A stretch of DNA of 22,032 nt from Candidatus Coprovivens sp. (GTDB lineage Bacteria > Bacillota_I > Bacilli_A > RF39 > UBA660): positions 1-22,032 of the forward strand of contig JBJFGS010000017.1 of NCBI GenBank assembly GCA_051892935.1. The letters are read 5' to 3'. A program made the position numbers and the translations under genes. Position 1 is the first letter of the stretch, and the number at the start of each line of letters is the position of its first letter. Positions 51 to 16,311 of this stretch are shown piece by piece. The notes below the pieces were generated by a model that saw only the letters and a program-made list of their open reading frames with translations, was not told the DNA's origin and searched no databases.

Positions 51-85
51 AAAAATAACACTATTTCTTATAGTGTTATTTTTTT
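51..85. terminator. Bidirectional terminator-like hairpin overlapping the stop codon of the HEXXH operon
   Basis: Perfect 14-bp inverted repeat AAAAATAACACTAT (51-64) / ATAGTGTTATTTTT (70-83), 5-nt loop, A/T tracts on both sides. Confidence 0.7.
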
Positions 86-1123
86 ATATAAACAATCTTC
101 ATAATATAATACATTTTTATTAAGAACAATCCCATACTTATTTAGTATATCAAATATATTATATTGATTTCCATTTAAAATAATATCTTCTAATACTGCC
201 AATGCCTTTTTTCTATTTTTTTGATAAATTACATATAATTCAACAGCAATTAAATAAGGTAGTTGATAAGAATAATCTTGTGTAATAGATTCTTCAAGTA
301 AAAAAACAATATCTTCCTCACTAAAATCATACATTTTTAAGCATCTTAACAAATCATCTTCTTTTAAATGCTTATGCTTATTAACTAAATCTAACAACTC
401 GTTTTTATCACCTAAAAAAGATGCTTGAGATTTAATTAATGTATGCAAAAAATTTTTCCTTTGAAAATTATCATCAAATAAATTATATTTTTTGCTGATA
501 AAATCAGTAGCAATTAATTCCATAAATATTGCTGATGTTTCTCTTATGACAAATGAATCTAAAAAATATTGATTAGAAAAAAAATCTATAGCATGTTCTA
601 ATTCATGAATTAATATGGTAAATTTAGTAATATTAGAATAATTAGGAACAAAGATAAAAGCTTCGCCGGTACTTTTTAAAGTGAGAGTTTCTCCAGCAGT
701 ATCAGTTTGAGGATTAATAAATTTCAAATGGTCTTCTGCTTCCTCTTGAAAACTGCTAAAACCAGAATAAAAGAACTCTCCTTGATTTCTAAAAAACATT
801 TCAGCATCTTCCGTAGCCTGTCCATCACTTATTGGAAAAAAAGAGTAAGAAGTATTAAAAATTAATTCACTTTGAGAACGACCTATATTGCTGAATTTTT
901 CCGAAAATGAATAAAAAGGTTTATAAAAATGTATATCACCAGCATCATCTAATAATCGTTCATATAAAGATATACTTTTTTCAGAAAAATTTCTTTCTAA
1001 TCTTTTAATATAATTGGACAATATACCTATATCTGCCATAACAACAGGATCACTTGAATAACTTTTTAAAATATTAAGTAACTTTTTTAAATCTTCAATT
1101 CTTATATCGTAAACTTTTTCCAT
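68..1123 (-). CDS. HEXXH metallopeptidase-like protein (M3/oligoendopeptidase F-like fold), paralog 3
   Basis: 351 aa; IHELEHAID followed by RETSAIFMEL (third zinc ligand E) and YSYQLPYLIA; start overlaps the upstream gene by 29 nt. Confidence 0.7.
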   Translation of the reverse strand: MEKVYDIRIEDLKKLLNILKSYSSDPVVMADIGILSNYIKRLERNFSEKSISLYERLLDDAGDIHFYKPFYSFSEKFSNIGRSQSELIFNTSYSFFPISDGQATEDAEMFFRNQGEFFYSGFSSFQEEAEDHLKFINPQTDTAGETLTLKSTGEAFIFVPNYSNITKFTILIHELEHAIDFFSNQYFLDSFVIRETSAIFMELIATDFISKKYNLFDDNFQRKNFLHTLIKSQASFLGDKNELLDLVNKHKHLKEDDLLRCLKMYDFSEEDIVFLLEESITQDYSYQLPYLIAVELYVIYQKNRKKALAVLEDIILNGNQYNIFDILNKYGIVLNKNVLYYEDCLYKKITL

Positions 1124-2240
1124 CTTTTAAATCCCTTGCTTTATCAAATAATATCTTTAAATATTTTTCAAAATTTTTACCAGGTTCTAAACCCAAACTT
1201 TTTACATATTCCAAATAACCAGCTGAATGCTCATTTTTACTATTAATAATTTTATATAATAAATCTAAAGCAAATTGTTTGTCATATTGATAAATAATAT
1301 ACAACTCAATTGCAGTTAAATAAGAAATAATATAATGAAAATAATCTCTCATATAAGTGTTTATAACATCTTTTACACCTATTAAATTATATCCTTCTTC
1401 TATAGACAAGTACTTTTTTACAGTTCTCTTATCATATAGTTGCCTACTAGTTAAAGTATTATACATATTAAGTTTAGAACAAATTAATTGAGCAGAATAT
1501 ATATAATCTTTTAATACTTGTATACTAATATCGAATGAATCCTGTTCTAAATCTAATTTATCTTTTAAATAATCTACTCCCAGTATTTCGAAGAATAAAG
1601 ATTCTAATTCTATGAAACAATATTTTCCAAAATCAAACATTGCTAAAGGATTTATAGTACAAGAAATACCATGTCCAAATTCATGAATAGCAGTAATATA
1701 GTCCTGTGCAGTATTATTAACACCTAGTTCTATAAAAGTAATATCTGTATTGTAAACAGAATAAGTTTGACCACTTTCTGCAATATTAGGTGACAACTTA
1801 TTAACAAAAAGAGTATTTTTAAATCTACTTGATAATAAAGTATATTTTTTACTAAAGACACCACCAATAGAACTATAAAAATCTTTACTAATAGTTAGTA
1901 CTTTAGATATAGAAGTATCAATAGTAGGTAACTTATCATTTGGTTTTATTATCAAAGATTCACCAATATCACTAATCTCTCTAATATATGGACAATAAAT
2001 ACCATATTTATCTATAATAGAAAAATCATCTTCAATAATACATCTAAAATTAGAACTTTCTCCCTTTTCTAAAAGGTGCCTTCTAGTATGAGTAAGTTCA
2101 TCATATCTATCTATTATATCTAAAATAGAGTTAGCTGTACTTTCATATTCCAATGAAAGAGTAGGATCTGCTGTTTCACATGCTATACTATAATATTTAT
2201 GATATAAATCTTTTAAATAACCAATATTCCATCTTTGCAT
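1095..2240 (-). CDS. HEXXH metallopeptidase-like protein (M3-like), paralog 2
   Basis: 381 aa; IHEFGHGIS, FIELESLFFEI, FHYIISYLTA motifs; starts 1 nt after the stop of the upstream paralog. Confidence 0.7.
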   Translation of the reverse strand: MQRWNIGYLKDLYHKYYSIACETADPTLSLEYESTANSILDIIDRYDELTHTRRHLLEKGESSNFRCIIEDDFSIIDKYGIYCPYIREISDIGESLIIKPNDKLPTIDTSISKVLTISKDFYSSIGGVFSKKYTLLSSRFKNTLFVNKLSPNIAESGQTYSVYNTDITFIELGVNNTAQDYITAIHEFGHGISCTINPLAMFDFGKYCFIELESLFFEILGVDYLKDKLDLEQDSFDISIQVLKDYIYSAQLICSKLNMYNTLTSRQLYDKRTVKKYLSIEEGYNLIGVKDVINTYMRDYFHYIISYLTAIELYIIYQYDKQFALDLLYKIINSKNEHSAGYLEYVKSLGLEPGKNFEKYLKILFDKARDLKDGKSLRYKN

Positions 2241-2241
2241 A

Positions 2242-3396
2242 TTAAAACCTTCTTTTTTGTAATTTCTTATTGAAATTATTTAATATAATCCCGACTTCTT
2301 CTTTAGCGTGTGAATTTAAAGAAAGATTTTCTATTATAAACACCAATAAATCTTCATTAGCAGGAAAAGCTAAAAATTTTTTAAATAATTCTAAGGCTTT
2401 CTTTTTGTCGTTTTTATACATGTGTAATAATTCTAAAGAAACAATAAAACTTAAAACATATACACCATCGTCTTCTATTGTAGTAGATAAAGCTTTTTCA
2501 AAACATTCTTCATCTACTTCATAAGACTCTTCTAATTCAGAAAAAAATCTATTTGACATAACAAATTTATTGTCAGCCCAAGTATTAACAATAGGAGTAT
2601 GAAGAGTTAAAAATTCAGCTAAATCAAGATAAGTTACAACGTTTGTATATAAATGATAAGCGACTTCTAAATCATCAAAATTCCCTTTATTCTCATACAA
2701 AGCCACAAGCTCTGGGAAAATAGCAGCCACCTCAATAAAGAAATCTTCGCGATCGGTATATGACACATTAGGATTGACTATATTATGAATAGCATGGCCA
2801 TATTCATGAACAGCACAACCATAATTTTCTAAAGGGCTTATATCACAAATACTAATAAAATTTTTATTAACCCCACCAATGAATAGCGTATTGCCGTTAG
2901 ATTTTTTGTCATCATTTTGAGACCTACTTAAGAACTTTATATTCTGCTGTCTTTCTTTGTAAATAGAAGAAAAGACTTGATATAAATCTCTGTCAAATGC
3001 ACTGTAAAATTTATCAACAAGACTTAACGTTCTAGAATGGTTACTAGAAGCACCAGTATGTAAAAAATAAAAATTTCCGTTTTCATCAATTTCCTCAAGA
3101 CGATTAGAAATATCGTCAGCCAATTCTAAATGATCAATACATTTATCTAAAAAATTTCCAATAATAGAGTAATATCTTCCGTAAGTTAATCTAGCGTTCA
3201 ATATACTAGAAAGCCTTTGTCTAGCAGTATCCTTTGATGCTTGAAAATTGTTAAAATTATCATGAAATAATTTATCAGTAGTATCCGCAATCTTTTGAAG
3301 ATAAACTTTTCTTTTTATATCAGATTCTTTCTCGATTAATTCGTTTAACTTCCTAATTTCTTCTACAAACTCATCGTATCCCCAATTATAAGCCAT
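2242..3396 (-). CDS. HEXXH metallopeptidase-like protein (M3-like), paralog 1
   Basis: 384 aa; VHEYGHAIH, FIEVAAIFPEL, VYVLSFIVS motifs; GGGGGA ribosome-binding site upstream of ATG. Confidence 0.7.
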   Translation of the reverse strand: MAYNWGYDEFVEEIRKLNELIEKESDIKRKVYLQKIADTTDKLFHDNFNNFQASKDTARQRLSSILNARLTYGRYYSIIGNFLDKCIDHLELADDISNRLEEIDENGNFYFLHTGASSNHSRTLSLVDKFYSAFDRDLYQVFSSIYKERQQNIKFLSRSQNDDKKSNGNTLFIGGVNKNFISICDISPLENYGCAVHEYGHAIHNIVNPNVSYTDREDFFIEVAAIFPELVALYENKGNFDDLEVAYHLYTNVVTYLDLAEFLTLHTPIVNTWADNKFVMSNRFFSELEESYEVDEECFEKALSTTIEDDGVYVLSFIVSLELLHMYKNDKKKALELFKKFLAFPANEDLLVFIIENLSLNSHAKEEVGIILNNFNKKLQKRRF

Positions 3397-3465
3397 AGTA
3401 ATCCCCCATTAATTAATGAAATATAATAACACATGAAAATGTAAACTGCAAATGTTAAAAAAATA

Positions 3466-3494
3466 TTGACTAAAAATATTAAAAAGTATATACT
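3466..3494 (+). promoter_or_regulatory. Sigma-A promoter driving the non-coding region
   Basis: TTGACT (3466-3471), 17-nt spacer, TATACT (3489-3494); A-rich UP-like sequence upstream; predicted start near 3501. Confidence 0.75.
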
Positions 3495-3500
3495 TAATAT

Positions 3501-4511
3501 AGTAAGGAGGTATACAGAAGACGAACAATTCTTTAATACCTTAAAAATATGGTTTAGGGCATAAACTTGAAAAATAGTGATAATATAAAGAAATTTATAT
3601 TTCGTTTGTGAAAAAGTATATCTAATAAATGGTATTAAAATCGATAGTCCGCAAAACTATCAAAAAGTTCATTACCGCAAATAATGAATCATATAACTTG
3701 TAACATGTGTATTTGCAGTACATTTGTATATTAGTAATAGTTTACTAAGCCAACAAGTTATTTCCAGCATGAGAAATCATGACTGAAGAGGGTATATGTT
3801 ACCAATATACTCTATTCGTCAACTGTTAGTCGTTGTATGGTTTTAAAACTCATCACCATACGATTACTATTCAAGCAATTGGAGTATCAATTTACCACTA
3901 TGGTGTTATTAATAGTTAGCATTTTCTATTTGCCAAAAAGGATGATAACATTTTAGTGAAAATGATGGGGAGCTTTCATACTAGTCCAGATATATTAAAA
4001 TATATCGCAAGTATGTTATGCATTATTGATCATTTTTGTTAAAATATGATAATAACTACCTTACTTGAATTAGAAATGTTATCCTGATGAAAAGCATATG
4101 GGAAACAAGTCTTTGGGATTTTAAGGAAAAAGTATATCATATAAAAAACAATCTGTCCGCGTTTAAAAATTGGGGAATCTTAAACTTGTCTTGCAAGAGA
4201 ATCAAGCAATCCAAATGTTGAGTGAAAACCTTTTCGGTTAGCTGCTGATTAGTGAGTCACAATATGCTATATCGTGTGTGCGCGTATAAATAAAATTTAG
4301 CGATGAATTGGAGAATTCTTATACAAAAGTATAGTTAAACGTGAATGTGTTAATGTTACTTGGAATACAGGATGGATGACGTCGTGTATTTATGAAACTA
4401 TCAAAATAGTATGTCAAACCATTCAGCTATATGGAAGTTAATTTTCAAACGAATAAATGCAAAAAAGGATTAATATATCCGAGAAAAGAACGATTAATGT
4501 TCTTTTTTTTT
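3501..4511 (+). ncRNA. Candidate large (about 1 kb) structured non-coding RNA, family unassigned
   Basis: No ORF in the supplied track; own promoter and terminator; more than 15 helices by eye, including GAAA/GCAA tetraloops (3582-3601, 3765-3785, 4190-4199), twin CCGCAAA-loop hairpins (3643-3661, 3668-3688) and domain-closing helices 3693-3701/3753-3761, 3944-3953/4074-4083, 4105-4110/4184-4189. Confidence 0.7.
4484..4511 (+). terminator. Intrinsic terminator closing the candidate ncRNA
   Basis: AAAAGAAC-GATTAAT-GTTCTTTT with a run of 9 T (4503-4511). Confidence 0.7.
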
Positions 4512-4556
4512 GCATTCAATTCGTTTGAATATAAGTAAAGCTAAAAACGTTATATA

Positions 4557-4585
4557 TTGATTAAAAACCTAAAAAGGTATAAAAT
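4557..4585 (+). promoter_or_regulatory. Sigma-A promoter for the FIST/aldehyde dehydrogenase operon
   Basis: TTGATT (4557-4562), 17-nt spacer, TAAAAT (4580-4585). Confidence 0.55.
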
Positions 4586-4660
4586 ATAAAATAAGGAGGA
4601 TTGTAAAATCCCATCTAGCGTGTCTAGATTTATTGCATAGAATAAAAAGGAGGAATTTAT

Positions 4661-5818
4661 TTGAAAGCAATGGTAGGATCAAGTATCCTTAGTAACAGTT
4701 ATGAAGCAGGTGCAGATACTGCTAAAAATGCATTAAAAGGAATTAAAAGTCCTAAGATTGGTCTTTTATTTACTTCAGTCAAATACGATCAAGACGAAGT
4801 AATTAAAGGCATTAAATCTGTAAATCCCGAGTTAAAAGTTATCGGATGTACTTCATCTGGTGCTATTATGACTCCAGATGGAATTATCTCAAGTGAAAAT
4901 GGCTTCGCAGGTATGATGGTACTAGAAGATAATGAACTAAATGTTGGAGTTGCAGCTTCTCCAAGAGGCCAAGATCCAAGAGCAACAGGAAGAAAAATTG
5001 CTAAAGAAGCAATGGAAGATGCTGGTAAAAAACATCCACCAGTAGCATTTGCAATGTTTGCATCACCAGCTGAAGAAGAATACTACCTAAAAGGTATTCA
5101 AGATGTAATTGGAGAAGTTCCAATGTTTGGTGGCTCTGCAGCTGATGATGCAGTTGTAGGAGAATGGAAAGTACTTTGTGAAGACAAAACATTTGGAGAT
5201 GGATGTGCAGTAGCATTATTCTATACTACAAAAGAAATTAAAAATGTCTTTACAGGTGCATACAACGAAACTGACAACGTTGGTATCATTACTAAGGTAG
5301 AAGATGATCGTAAGATTGTTGAAATAGACCATGTACCAGCTCTAAAAAAATATGCTGAATGGACAGGATTAAATGCCGATGAATTAATGGGACAAAACCT
5401 ATTGGTAGCATCAATACCAATGGCATTAGGTGTAAAAACAATTCAAGGAGACTTAACTGCTGTTCGTCACCCAATGATTGGTAATCCGGATTACTCATTC
5501 AACGTTGGAGCAAAAATGGCTGAAAAAACTGCTATTATTCAACTTGAAACAGACGTTGACGGCTTAATAGGTGGCGCAGTATCTACAATTAAAGAATTAA
5601 AAACAGACTTCAAAGCAGGAGCAATGTTCTTAGTTCATTGCGGAGGAAGAAAATTACATATTGGTGATAGAGTAGATGAAGATTTCGTAGCAATTAAAAA
5701 TGCTGCTGGAGAAACTCCATTTATAGTAGCATTCACTTTCGGTGAATATGGTCAAAATAACCACTCTGGCGCAACAATTGGAGGATTGTCTCTATCATTT
5801 ACAGGATTCTCTGAATAA
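4661..5818 (+). CDS. Stand-alone FIST N/FIST C domain protein
   Basis: 385 aa, TTG start after AAGGAGG; FIST-typical motifs IGCTSSG, PMFGGSAAD, VHCGGR and FTFGEYG. Confidence 0.85.
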   Translation: MKAMVGSSILSNSYEAGADTAKNALKGIKSPKIGLLFTSVKYDQDEVIKGIKSVNPELKVIGCTSSGAIMTPDGIISSENGFAGMMVLEDNELNVGVAASPRGQDPRATGRKIAKEAMEDAGKKHPPVAFAMFASPAEEEYYLKGIQDVIGEVPMFGGSAADDAVVGEWKVLCEDKTFGDGCAVALFYTTKEIKNVFTGAYNETDNVGIITKVEDDRKIVEIDHVPALKKYAEWTGLNADELMGQNLLVASIPMALGVKTIQGDLTAVRHPMIGNPDYSFNVGAKMAEKTAIIQLETDVDGLIGGAVSTIKELKTDFKAGAMFLVHCGGRKLHIGDRVDEDFVAIKNAAGETPFIVAFTFGEYGQNNHSGATIGGLSLSFTGFSE

Positions 5819-5830
5819 TAGGAGGACAAA

Positions 5831-7270
5831 ATGGCAAAGAATTTAATAGGTAATAAATGGCTTGATTCAGCAGATGGCAAAGTAATCACAATTACAAACC
5901 CTGCAACTGGTGCAGTAATTGATACTGTTCCAGAAAGTACTCAAAAAGACTGTGATACAGCAGTACAAGTTGCAAAAAAAGCTCAAAAGTTATGGGCAAA
6001 AAGACCATTACATGAAAGAGCAGATATTTTGATGAAATTCGTTTCATTAGTTGAAAGAGATAAAGATATATTAGCTAAATTACTAAGTGATGAAACAGGT
6101 AAACCAATTACTGAAGCATATGGTGAAATAGCTAATGTGTCTGTTGGAATACCAGCTTTTTGCGAAAAAGCAAAACATGAATATGGTAATATGATTCCAG
6201 CAGGTCAAGAAAAAGGTAATGAAAATACCTTACAATATACAGTTCAAGCTCCATTAGGAGTAGTAGTAGCAATTATCCCATTCAATTTTCCAAGTGACTT
6301 ATTCTGTCAAAAAATACCACCTGCATTATTAATGGGAAATACTGTTATAATGAAACCATCACCACATAATCCATTAACATTAACTAAATATGCTGAATTA
6401 CTTCTTGAAGCAGGAGTAGATGAAGGTGTTATTAATGTTATAAATGGAACAGGTGGAGCAGCAGCTCAAGCATTAGCCGCTAATCCTGGTGTTGCCTTAG
6501 TAAGCTTAACAGGAGCTACTAAATCAGGAATGGAAACTATGAAAACTTGTAGTAACAACCTTACACATGTAATGTTAGAACTAGGTGGAAATGATGCCTT
6601 TATCTTAGATAGAGATGGCGATGTTGATTTAGCTGTTGAAGAAACAGTTTGGGGAAGATTCTATAATACAGGACAAGTATGTTGTGCTTCAAAACGTTTC
6701 TTAATTCATAATTCAGTTAAAAAAGAATATATTAAAAAATTAAAGGATAGATTATCTAAAATCAAAAGAGGAATGCCAAGTGACCCTACTGTAGAACTTG
6801 GATGTCTAGTAAGTGAACAAGCTGCAATTAGAGTTGAAGAACAAGTAAATCAAACGGTTGCAGAAGGAGCTACCATTGTTATGGGCGGCAAAAGAGATGG
6901 AGCTTTCTATGATCCTACAATTTTAGATGGCGTAACAAAGAACATGGCAGTTGCTAAAGATATGGAAATCTTTGGCCCAGTAGTGTCAATTATCGGATTT
7001 GATGATATTAATGAAGCAATCAAAATTGCTAATCAATCATCATTTGGACTATGTGGCTGCATAATTTCCCGTGATATGAATAATGCTATCCAAGTAGCAA
7101 ATCAACTTGAATGTGGTGGTGTAATTATTAATGGGGCATCATTCTTCCGTTCATTTGAAATGCCATTCGGCGGATGGAAACATTCTGGAATTGGTAACGA
7201 AGGTGTCATGTCTACATTAAAAGAAATGTCACGTACAAAAACTGTTATTCTAAAAAACATTCTAAAATAA
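5831..7270 (+). CDS. NAD(P)-dependent aldehyde dehydrogenase (lactaldehyde dehydrogenase-like)
   Basis: 479 aa; IIPFNFP, KPS, LELGGND (catalytic E), GQVCCA (catalytic C), EIFGPV, PFGGWKHSGIG; AGGAGG RBS. Confidence 0.93.
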   Translation: MAKNLIGNKWLDSADGKVITITNPATGAVIDTVPESTQKDCDTAVQVAKKAQKLWAKRPLHERADILMKFVSLVERDKDILAKLLSDETGKPITEAYGEIANVSVGIPAFCEKAKHEYGNMIPAGQEKGNENTLQYTVQAPLGVVVAIIPFNFPSDLFCQKIPPALLMGNTVIMKPSPHNPLTLTKYAELLLEAGVDEGVINVINGTGGAAAQALAANPGVALVSLTGATKSGMETMKTCSNNLTHVMLELGGNDAFILDRDGDVDLAVEETVWGRFYNTGQVCCASKRFLIHNSVKKEYIKKLKDRLSKIKRGMPSDPTVELGCLVSEQAAIRVEEQVNQTVAEGATIVMGGKRDGAFYDPTILDGVTKNMAVAKDMEIFGPVVSIIGFDDINEAIKIANQSSFGLCGCIISRDMNNAIQVANQLECGGVIINGASFFRSFEMPFGGWKHSGIGNEGVMSTLKEMSRTKTVILKNILK

Positions 7271-7294
7271 AAAAGATAACTAAATAATATATTT

Positions 7295-7332
7295 AAAGAG
7301 CAAAAAATGTATTAACTTTTTGCTCTTTTTTT
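7295..7332 (+). terminator. Intrinsic terminator after the aldehyde dehydrogenase
   Basis: AAAGAGCAAAAA (7295-7306) / TTTTTGCTCTTT (7317-7328) plus T tract. Confidence 0.8.
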
Positions 7333-7660
7333 AATTGCAAAAAAATTAAAAAAATCAAAAAAATTAAAAATGTAAATTTTATGAAAATCGATTTTTTTAA
7401 AAAAAGTAAAAAAATGTAAAATTGAAATAAAAAAATAAAAAAAGTGAACGAACCCAGGTAAAATAAGGAAAAAATAACTTTTATATATAACTGATAATAT
7501 CAAAATCAAAAAAACAAAAATCCCTAAAAATGGGAAAAATTCAATTTTTTAAAAAATGAAAAAAATGAAAAAATTGAAAAAAAATAAAAAATAAAACTTT
7601 TCATTATATGACATATCATTTATAATGAAATTAGGAAAAGGTAGAAGGAGAGTTTTGAAT

Positions 7661-16235: not shown

Positions 16236-16311
16236 GCCTGATTAGCTCAGTCGGTAGAGCGCACGGCTGTTAACCGTTAGGTCGTAGGTTCGAGTCCTAC
16301 ATCAGGCGCCA
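16236..16311 (+). tRNA. tRNA-Asn (anticodon GTT)
   Basis: 76 nt; acceptor stem GCCTGAT/ATCAGGC, D arm GCTC/GAGC, anticodon loop CTGTTAA, T arm GTAGG-TTCGAGT-CCTAC, G discriminator, encoded CCA. Confidence 0.96.

Follow-up and report, generated by a model that had tools for sequence, protein, structure and literature searches.

The window analysed here is a stretch of 22,032 nucleotides from Candidatus Coprovivens sp. (assembly GCA_051892935.1, contig JBJFGS010000017.1, positions 1 to 22,032, forward strand). Within it, positions 3466-4511 on the + strand very probably constitute a free-standing gene for a heavily paired non-coding RNA (ncRNA) of about 1,011 nt that stands outside the described RNA families, and confidence is slightly higher still in a genuine structured ncRNA gene that represents a new class. 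The element is under purifying selection, contains no conserved open reading frame (ORF) and keeps about 38 helices (some 265 base pairs, with one candidate pseudoknot) by compensatory substitutions. Such an RNA would rank among the largest bacterial RNAs outside the ribosome. The original prediction, made from the letters of the sequence, had proposed a structured RNA at this position and named a search of Rfam, a folding comparison with dinucleotide shuffles and a search for covariation among homologs as checks.

The case for a conserved RNA structure is carried by three mutually independent tests, namely the fold of a single sequence, a coding-gene control and a structure-blind analysis of mutual information (MI). 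On the + strand, positions 3501-4500 fold with a minimum free energy (MFE) of -220.4 kcal/mol (z = -4.82), a value matched by 0 of 20 dinucleotide shuffles, while the - strand of the same interval gives a z-score of -2.64. The MFE fold of the window copy, made from one sequence, was projected on an alignment of 23 species (A1), where 82.3% of the cells are paired versus 38-45% after the 3' partners have been slid along by one to three columns. The same projection counts 499 double-change cells versus 155-196 in the slid versions, and none of 500 shuffles reached the observed values. Shared phylogeny is controlled for by passing the coding region of the neighbouring FIST gene through the same pipeline for the same 15 genomes, which gives 29.5 double-change cells per 1000 versus 78.4 for the RNA, a 2.7-fold difference. 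The MI test, with average product correction, was run on 37 aligned sequences (about 550,000 column pairs) and assumed no structure. Canonical pairs make up 80% of its top 25 pairs versus 14% of the background, and these pairs map to the predicted helices; among the top 200, 23 are stacked in antiparallel and 0 in parallel orientation. The long-range pairs 3978/4432 (rank 6 of about 550,000), 4177/4316 and 3515/3825 were recovered in this way.

A consensus structure was obtained from the 37 sequences, mapped to A1 and completed with one pseudoknot. It comprises 265 pairs in 38 helices, with 92.6% of the cells paired, and double changes occur in 133 pairs and 550 cells versus 52-64 pairs and 103-146 cells when the partners are slid. 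The consensus was derived from the very sequences on which it is tested, and the statistical weight therefore stays with the three independent tests. As regards the strand, G-U and U-G cells number 1252 and A-C and C-A cells 116, an excess from which the + strand follows as the functional one. The earlier remark that G-U pairs read correctly on the + strand agrees with these counts and with the stronger + fold; the proposed shuffle comparison also came out in favour of that strand, and compensatory changes were found among the homologs in both A1 and the 37-sequence alignment.

The element occurs once in the 1.81-Mb, 53-contig genome. The genus is represented by 26 other species genomes, and 24 of these gave a match, with 67-92% identity over approximately 3456-4466. 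The two genomes lacking a match (G013 and G042) are 85% and 87% complete, respectively, and incomplete assembly may account for both. A 17-nt pattern fetched 120 metagenome loci, 18 of which are homologous by nhmmer and 13 of these near full length. In the same genomes, the RNA is 65-94% identical to the window copy, versus 44-73% at third codon positions of FIST; the stretch is therefore under purifying selection to the same degree as the coding genes beside it. Beyond the genus, a covariance model (R1) was built on the core 4158-4343 (198 positions, 40 pairs) and run with Infernal's stricter filters, so that its result is to be read as no match in the genomes searched. In the family sample, 2 of 151 genomes (1 of 150 genera) were matched, these being the window genome and G002, the only other member of the genus drawn; in the order sample, the window genome alone was matched (1 of 151), with 150 further genomes unmatched. 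Among the genomes searched, the element is found in one genus only. Short A+T-rich blastn matches outside the genus (E 1e-4 to 1e-5, 28-83 nt) were taken as chance. A mobile element or phage origin was considered and rejected, the element being single copy, unmatched in 50,697 phage records and in plasmid records (blastn, distant mode), and without homology to any of 8 viral contigs fetched by the pattern.

The genus Candidatus Coprovivens (GTDB UBA11963) is assigned to the order RF39, family CAG-1000, in PMC8035907. Its genomes (1.0-2.4 Mb) tend to be larger than those listed for other genera in the family and order samples (0.8-1.3 Mb), and the genus-restricted RNA may be part of a lineage-specific gain of sequence.

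The ends of the transcription unit are marked by conserved signals. The promoter at 3466-3494 is the top scorer among 10 promoter-like sites in the region; 10.2 such sites are expected by chance, and the weight of this one consequently rests on its conservation. It is kept in all 22 A1 copies that cover it, with the -10 box alternating between TATACT and TATAAT. From this position, transcription is predicted to start at about 3500-3502, which would give an RNA of approximately 3501-4511, or about 1,011 nt. All 20 aligned genomes have the terminator at 4485-4511, the stem of which varies in a compensatory manner (5 of 8 pairs double-changed); the consensus scanner missed it because it has too few G-C pairs. 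Its loop, AUUAA, is unusually conserved. As for expression, nine metatranscriptome runs from three studies share 0.34-0.52 of the sampled words of 3440-4700, a figure that assigns neither the part of the interval nor the strand; runs X11-X14 (word shares of at most 0.12) and X20 were given no evidential weight.

The element lies in a 1.26-kb gap between a HExxH gene (2242-3396, -) and the FIST gene (4661-5818, +), which are divergently oriented. No ORF of at least 60 aa was found in 3397-4660, the longest stop-to-stop frame in the gap being one of 97 aa on the - strand, and no ORF is conserved in 25 homologues under translation table 11 or table 4. An alternative genetic code was accordingly discarded, as table 4 opens no conserved frame in the homologues. 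Most of what the original prediction had said about the locus was thereby substantiated: a gap devoid of ORFs, a TTGACT-17-TATACT promoter conserved in every covering copy, a stem with a T-run as terminator in spite of the silent scanner, and a separate promoter of the downstream operon at 4557-4585, kept in 20 of 20 aligned genomes. Together with genome G001, discussed below, these signals also support the free-standing transcript that it had postulated.

With Rfam 15 at gathering thresholds (cmscan), no family matches the element in the window, where the sole match is a tRNA gene at 16236-16308 (+, 71.8 bits). Nor did 4227 Rfam models give a meaningful match to 3350-4700 at E <= 10 with lax filters, and at six divergent homologue loci no family was found inside the element at E <= 1. 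Matches to a microRNA, to CRISPR-DR56, to a 55-nt fragment of transfer-messenger RNA (tmRNA; 14.7 bits, over the terminator) and to a plastid psbA 3' untranslated region were discarded as chance. The genome has its RNase P RNA (265 bits), tmRNA (133 bits) and OLE RNA (230 bits) on other contigs, and riboswitch and T-box models were unmatched in the window scans. Group II intron families were likewise unmatched in the window, group-II-D1D4-1 was unmatched in the genome, and no ORF is present; the element is flanked by a promoter and a terminator, not by exons. The ROOL model (RF03087; 574 positions, gathering threshold 99.1 bits) was unmatched in the window by cmscan, which is the main test; a genome-wide ROOL search was also negative, a weak result as control genomes gave nothing either. 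For GOLLD, the whole-library Rfam 15 scans gave no match, and no phage, prophage or tRNA-island context was found. The OLE model (RF01071, gathering threshold 50 bits) was unmatched both in the window and at E <= 10 in 3350-4700. OLE RNA is flanked by oapA or other oap genes, and none of the ten window ORFs scanned is an oap-type neighbour.

A true OLE RNA is found elsewhere in the same genome, at contig C5:3019-3507 (-; locus L255), where it scores 230 bits against a cut-off of 50. The model thus finds OLE in this organism, which indicates that the search works here. This RF39-type organism accordingly carries two large structured ncRNAs. The original prediction had allowed either a divergent or expanded GOLLD, ROOL or OLE or a new class. 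With no Rfam match at the element and a true OLE elsewhere in the genome, the first branch lacks support and the second remains. The proposed cmscan thus revealed no known family that would remove the novelty, and the earlier failure to match it to RNase P RNA, tmRNA, T-box or intron signatures was borne out by the scans and by the presence of RNase P RNA and tmRNA elsewhere. No published description of this RNA was found in the literature covered, which did not extend to subscription journals and supplementary files; a term search of the main text of preprint 10.64898/2026.10.21.760802 was likewise negative.

Given its location, the element might be a giant cis-acting leader, similar to an attenuator or a riboswitch, of the FIST-aldehyde dehydrogenase operon, responding to a signal and gating read-through at 4485-4511. 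It lies directly upstream of FIST and on the same strand in most genomes, with the terminator just before the operon, and the nine nucleotides 3828-3836 form a complement to 4489-4497 (loop and 5' half of the terminator), as an antiterminator would. The complement is exact over 9 nt in most species, with one G-U in the window copy, and an alternative long-range pairing of the two segments is possible. However, 3828-3836 lies in a helix strongly backed by covariation, it is mismatched in G018 and G001, and a complement of this length is close to chance in A+T-rich sequence; the antiterminator pairing was judged probably fortuitous. The arrangement of the loci also argues against a leader. FIST follows the element in 20 of 25 loci, with other ORFs intervening in two of these (G016 and G020), and G001, which lacks both FIST and aldehyde dehydrogenase, has nrdD immediately after the RNA. 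In the genomes aligned, the terminator of the element is followed by a separate FIST promoter, conserved in 20 of 20. FIST homologues of other genera have upstream gaps of 0-765 nt without an nhmmer match, whereas those of the genus measure 1,179-1,316 nt in 8 of 10 loci (946 and 469 nt in the remaining two, which contain short spurious ORFs); across 80 FIST loci from many genera, nhmmer matched 11, all from the genus. Moreover, 1 kb is several-fold above the length of any known leader. The terminator followed by a separate promoter, G001 and the FIST genes of other genera therefore favour a free-standing gene, whose RNA probably acts independently of the FIST operon, and make the leader improbable.

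The other explanations are considerably weaker. An mRNA that encodes at least one very small protein, with the structure residing in long untranslated regions, would explain the perfect Shine-Dalgarno sequence at the 5' end and could draw on + strand frames of 20-57 aa. It is nonetheless very unlikely, as no ATG, GTG or TTG stands at a usable distance from that sequence, the longest + frames differ in place between species and covariation-backed helices span nearly the whole length. A little less credible still is a very divergent or expanded OLE, ROOL, GOLLD or ORF-less group II intron that the covariance models missed. The general look is shared, in that GNRA loops abound and multi-way junctions, long-range helices and a pseudoknot occur together with a palindromic loop, but the lax scan of the element, the scan of its divergent homologues, the bona fide OLE, the unmatched ROOL and group-II-D1D4-1 models, the absence of any phage, tRNA-island, oap or reverse-transcriptase context and the promoter and terminator in place of exons all speak against it. 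Equally implausible is conserved non-coding DNA, either a decayed gene or a protein-binding region, with RNA structure as a by-product. In its favour, the G+C content is not elevated and the transcript is a predicted one; yet the double substitutions amount to 2.7 times the coding control and 3-4 times the slid partners, the asymmetry of 1252 G-U to 116 A-C cells is meaningful at the RNA level only, and the promoter and the terminator are both conserved. A free-standing gene for a structured RNA is thus left as the best account of the element, whose architecture is summarised in Table 1.

Table 1. Coordinates of the RNA gene, its domains and the adjoining operon promoter in the window
Feature	Positions	Strand	Description
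Sigma-70-type promoter	3466-3494	+	-35 TTGACT 3466-3471, 17-nt spacer, -10 TATACT 3489-3494; score 10/12
Shine-Dalgarno-like AAGGAGG	3504-3510	+	about 4 nt from the predicted 5' end; candidate STAB-SD-type stabiliser
5' domain	3502-3895	+	closed by 3502-3505/3892-3895, 3509-3513/3884-3888 and 3514-3525/3815-3826
Optional sub-domain	3526-3693	+	3547-3621 with nested hairpins including 3579-3603 (GAAA loop); variable stretch with two GNRA (CGCAAA) hairpins
Hairpin cluster	3694-3813	+	3694-3760 enclosing 3703-3727 and 3731-3748; 3765-3785; 3789-3813
Hairpin/pseudoknot region	3827-3969	+	hairpin 3827-3840/3856-3869; GNRA hairpin 3870-3883; long hairpin 3896-3911/3943-3958
3' domain	3971-4439	+	closed by long-range 3971-3985/4426-4439; MI pair 3978/4432
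Helices within the 3' domain	3989-4006, 4008-4013/4357-4362, 4019-4024/4344-4349, arms 4045-4141 and 4371-4423	+	
Most conserved core	4158-4343	+	4158-4166/4335-4343, 4174-4181/4311-4319, 4185-4206, 4207-4221/4297-4310, 4222-4260, 4268-4288, 4320-4333
Palindromic hairpin loop, candidate symmetric kissing loop	4238-4244	+	AGCU at 4240-4243; loop of 5-7 nt
3' tail	4440-4484	+	conserved single-stranded block at about 4446-4464, then variable spacer
Intrinsic terminator	4485-4511	+	stem 4485-4492/4498-4505, loop AUUAA, U-run to 4511
FIST-aldehyde dehydrogenase promoter (outside the RNA)	4557-4585	+	score 9/12; TTGNNN-17-TATAAAAT-type site in 20/20 genomes

The RNA has the properties of a large ornate structured ncRNA: it exceeds 500 nt, is non-coding and multi-domain, and combines covariation with conserved unpaired blocks. 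In the 5' domain, the inner closing helix 3514-3525/3815-3826 is double-changed in 9 of 9 pairs with 92% of its cells pairing, and contains the MI pair 3515/3825, while the two outer helices (3502-3505/3892-3895 and 3509-3513/3884-3888) show no covariation. G002 and G022 lack most of the sub-domain at approximately 3526-3692, and G001 and G007 lack part of it. In the hairpin cluster (helices 8-12), double changes affect 6/7, 3/8, 6/7, 6/7 and 8/9 pairs, and in the hairpin 3827-3840/3856-3869 (helix 13) they affect 7 of 13. The candidate pseudoknot joins the loop segment 3849-3854 to 3964-3969, with 97% of the cells pairing, double changes in 2 of 6 pairs and MI z-scores of 5.4 and 4.0. The long hairpin 3896-3911/3943-3958 (helix 17; 12 of 16 pairs double-changed) carries an invariant loop, UUAGCAUUUU, found in 36 of 37 copies. 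Column identity reaches 0.82-0.93 in several blocks of the core, which also holds 4177/4316, one of the top MI pairs. There, the four central bases of the loop 4238-4244 (4240-4243) are AGCU in 30 of the 37 copies and GAUC in six that form one clade, the last copy having neither; the stem below (helix 32) is double-changed in 7 of 7 pairs. The A/U-only palindromes in the loop 3841-3855 and in the terminator loop (UUAA) were not counted, being expected in A+T-rich loops.

The helices listed in the original prediction fared unevenly. Covariation supports 3582-3601, both CCGCAAA hairpins, 3693-3701/3753-3761 with 3731-3748 inside it, 3765-3785, 3789-3813, 3827-3869, 3989-4006, 4190-4199, the hairpin at about 4230-4252, 4320-4333 and 4397-4410. 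Three pairings were not backed, namely 3944-3953/4074-4083, 4105-4110/4184-4189 and 3508-3513/3536-3541; the first of these fails because 3943-3958 pairs instead with 3896-3911. A separate observation concerns the variable hairpin 4072-4112, whose apical loop (window about 4087-4098) is the precise site of an insertion of some 705 nt in the genome G003 (L032:1863-2567); the remaining fold would stay intact. The insertion is single copy in that genome and has ORFs of 101-136 aa on the opposite strand, with no Pfam match.

As for the mode of action, the likeliest, we infer, is that of a stable scaffold RNA, possibly self-associating. It would act in trans as a structural component, protected at both ends. 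At the 5' end, a 30S subunit bound to the invariant AAGGAGG may shield the RNA from RNase J in the manner of a STAB-SD (a stabilising Shine-Dalgarno element), and the terminator hairpin may guard the 3' end, so that a long-lived RNA would result. According to PMC4113751, the 30S subunit attaches to the STAB-SD of Bacillus thuringiensis cry3A, which bars the way of the 5'-3' exonuclease RNase J1. The likeness lies in a perfect Shine-Dalgarno-like sequence that is close to the 5' end and non-initiating, and the difference in that the sequence heads an ncRNA here and an mRNA there. In all 23 A1 copies, the block 3499-3512, which contains AAGGAGG, varies hardly or not at all at most of its positions; no start codon (ATG, GTG or TTG) follows 3504-3510 at a usable distance, and the predicted consensus helix 2 would pair the two final G of the motif with 3887-3888. 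The genome encodes two RNase J genes, and genes of the window, e.g., FIST, use AGGAGG-type ribosome-binding sites.

Self-association could be mediated by the palindromic loop at 4240-4243, by analogy with OLE and GOLLD. Loops that switch between palindromes have been used to support intermolecular kissing loops in these two RNAs, as stated in PMC12286853. Neighbouring bases of a loop are unable to pair with one another in the same chain, and AGCU and GAUC are both palindromes; their exchange is therefore suggestive of self-association. The self-associating scaffold as a mechanism is a tentative proposal, with the odds leaning against it. A bolder notion, and if anything a shade more doubtful, is that of a chromosomal, kilobase-sized RNA class that forms a symmetric homo-oligomer through the loop 4240-4243 and other bridges, or else of a new large ribozyme.

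Several points weigh against this interpretation as a whole. Covariation is neutral on the outermost helices of the 5' domain and on several helices of the core, as these do not vary. The distribution is narrow, with R1 unmatched in 149 other genera of the family and in the 150 further genomes of the order. Structured RNAs of A+T-rich genomes are usually conspicuous by their G+C content, and here the element (about 0.29, in a gap of approximately 0.25-0.31) does not rise above its flanks (0.25-0.38). The same-strand adjacency of FIST in most genomes leaves room for an effect in cis through terminator read-through. With regard to the mechanism, the STAB-SD idea is an analogy, the assembly having no 16S rRNA gene for a comparison of the anti-Shine-Dalgarno sequence, and the kissing loop is read from one clade-level switch, that is, a single evolutionary event. 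Finally, the transcript and its ends are predicted ones, and RNA libraries that share words with the region can carry DNA.

The surroundings of the element offer some further observations. According to a Pfam scan of the ten window ORFs, its neighbours are three HExxH paralogues upstream and FIST, aldehyde dehydrogenase and NrdD downstream. The paralogues are three tandem genes in 68-3396 (-), encoding diverged proteins of 351, 381 and 384 aa with 24-26% mutual identity (E 2e-12 and 3e-10); their motifs are HEYGH, HEFGH and HELEH, and none has a Pfam match. The protein adjoining the RNA is 23-58% identical between species where matched, and its gene was unmatched in about 6 of 24 other loci. 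Upstream of nrdD, which encodes the anaerobic ribonucleotide reductase, there is a gap of 354 nt (7271-7624) that is extremely A+T-rich, with a G+C content of 0.165 in 7201-7600. The leader of the FIST mRNA has a Shine-Dalgarno-like AAGGAGG of its own at 4593-4599, right after the -10 box. Two small hairpins, 4598-4611 and 4613-4629, come next, at some distance before the ribosome-binding site proper (about 4651), and this region (4593-4629) is kept in several species. Elements of this kind close to the 5' end may be a general feature of transcripts in the genus.

Bacterial ncRNAs of more than 500 nt are very few. Within this group, the present RNA combines a size of about 1,011 nt, above the sizes quoted for OLE, ROOL and GOLLD in the literature covered, with a covariation that is unusually rich for a narrow clade (133 of 265 pairs double-changed). 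Its setting also differs, as the gene keeps a constant chromosomal position in uncultured gut Bacilli of reduced genome (RF39) in which an OLE RNA is already present, and it would be a second, independent large RNA in one cell type. Large RNA classes can evidently be limited to a single genus, and surveys that rely on broadly distributed motifs would miss them. Structure modelling is possible at the present depth of the alignment, and the hint of self-association is concrete and testable. OLE, GOLLD and ROOL have each proved architecturally unexpected, and their functions remain open in published accounts; if the homo-oligomer were true, the RNA would represent an RNA-only architecture comparable to OLE dimers or to GOLLD and ROOL cages.

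A comparison with these three classes places the RNA more precisely. ROOL, first found in gut and rumen metagenomes, is likewise a large, pseudoknotted RNA with no known protein partner. It is phage-associated according to PMC12286853, unlike the RNA described here. GOLLD, many members of which exceed 800 nt, belongs to a similar size class and has a comparable multi-domain architecture; as the same source states, it is encoded by phages and prophages near tRNA islands. The present RNA, in contrast, keeps one chromosomal position, has no phage genes close by and is unmatched in the phage records. OLE is also a large ornate chromosomal ncRNA of anaerobic Bacillota with conserved single-stranded blocks set among covarying helices. 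PMC12286853 describes OLE dimers joined by a symmetric kissing loop, the four central bases of which change from one palindrome to another, and the loop here alternates between AGCU and GAUC. Nevertheless, OLE measures about 600 nt in published abstracts (model of 616 positions) and shares no match in sequence or structure with the RNA of Candidatus Coprovivens, which was found in one genus only, has no oap-type neighbours among the window ORFs scanned and coexists with an OLE RNA at another locus.

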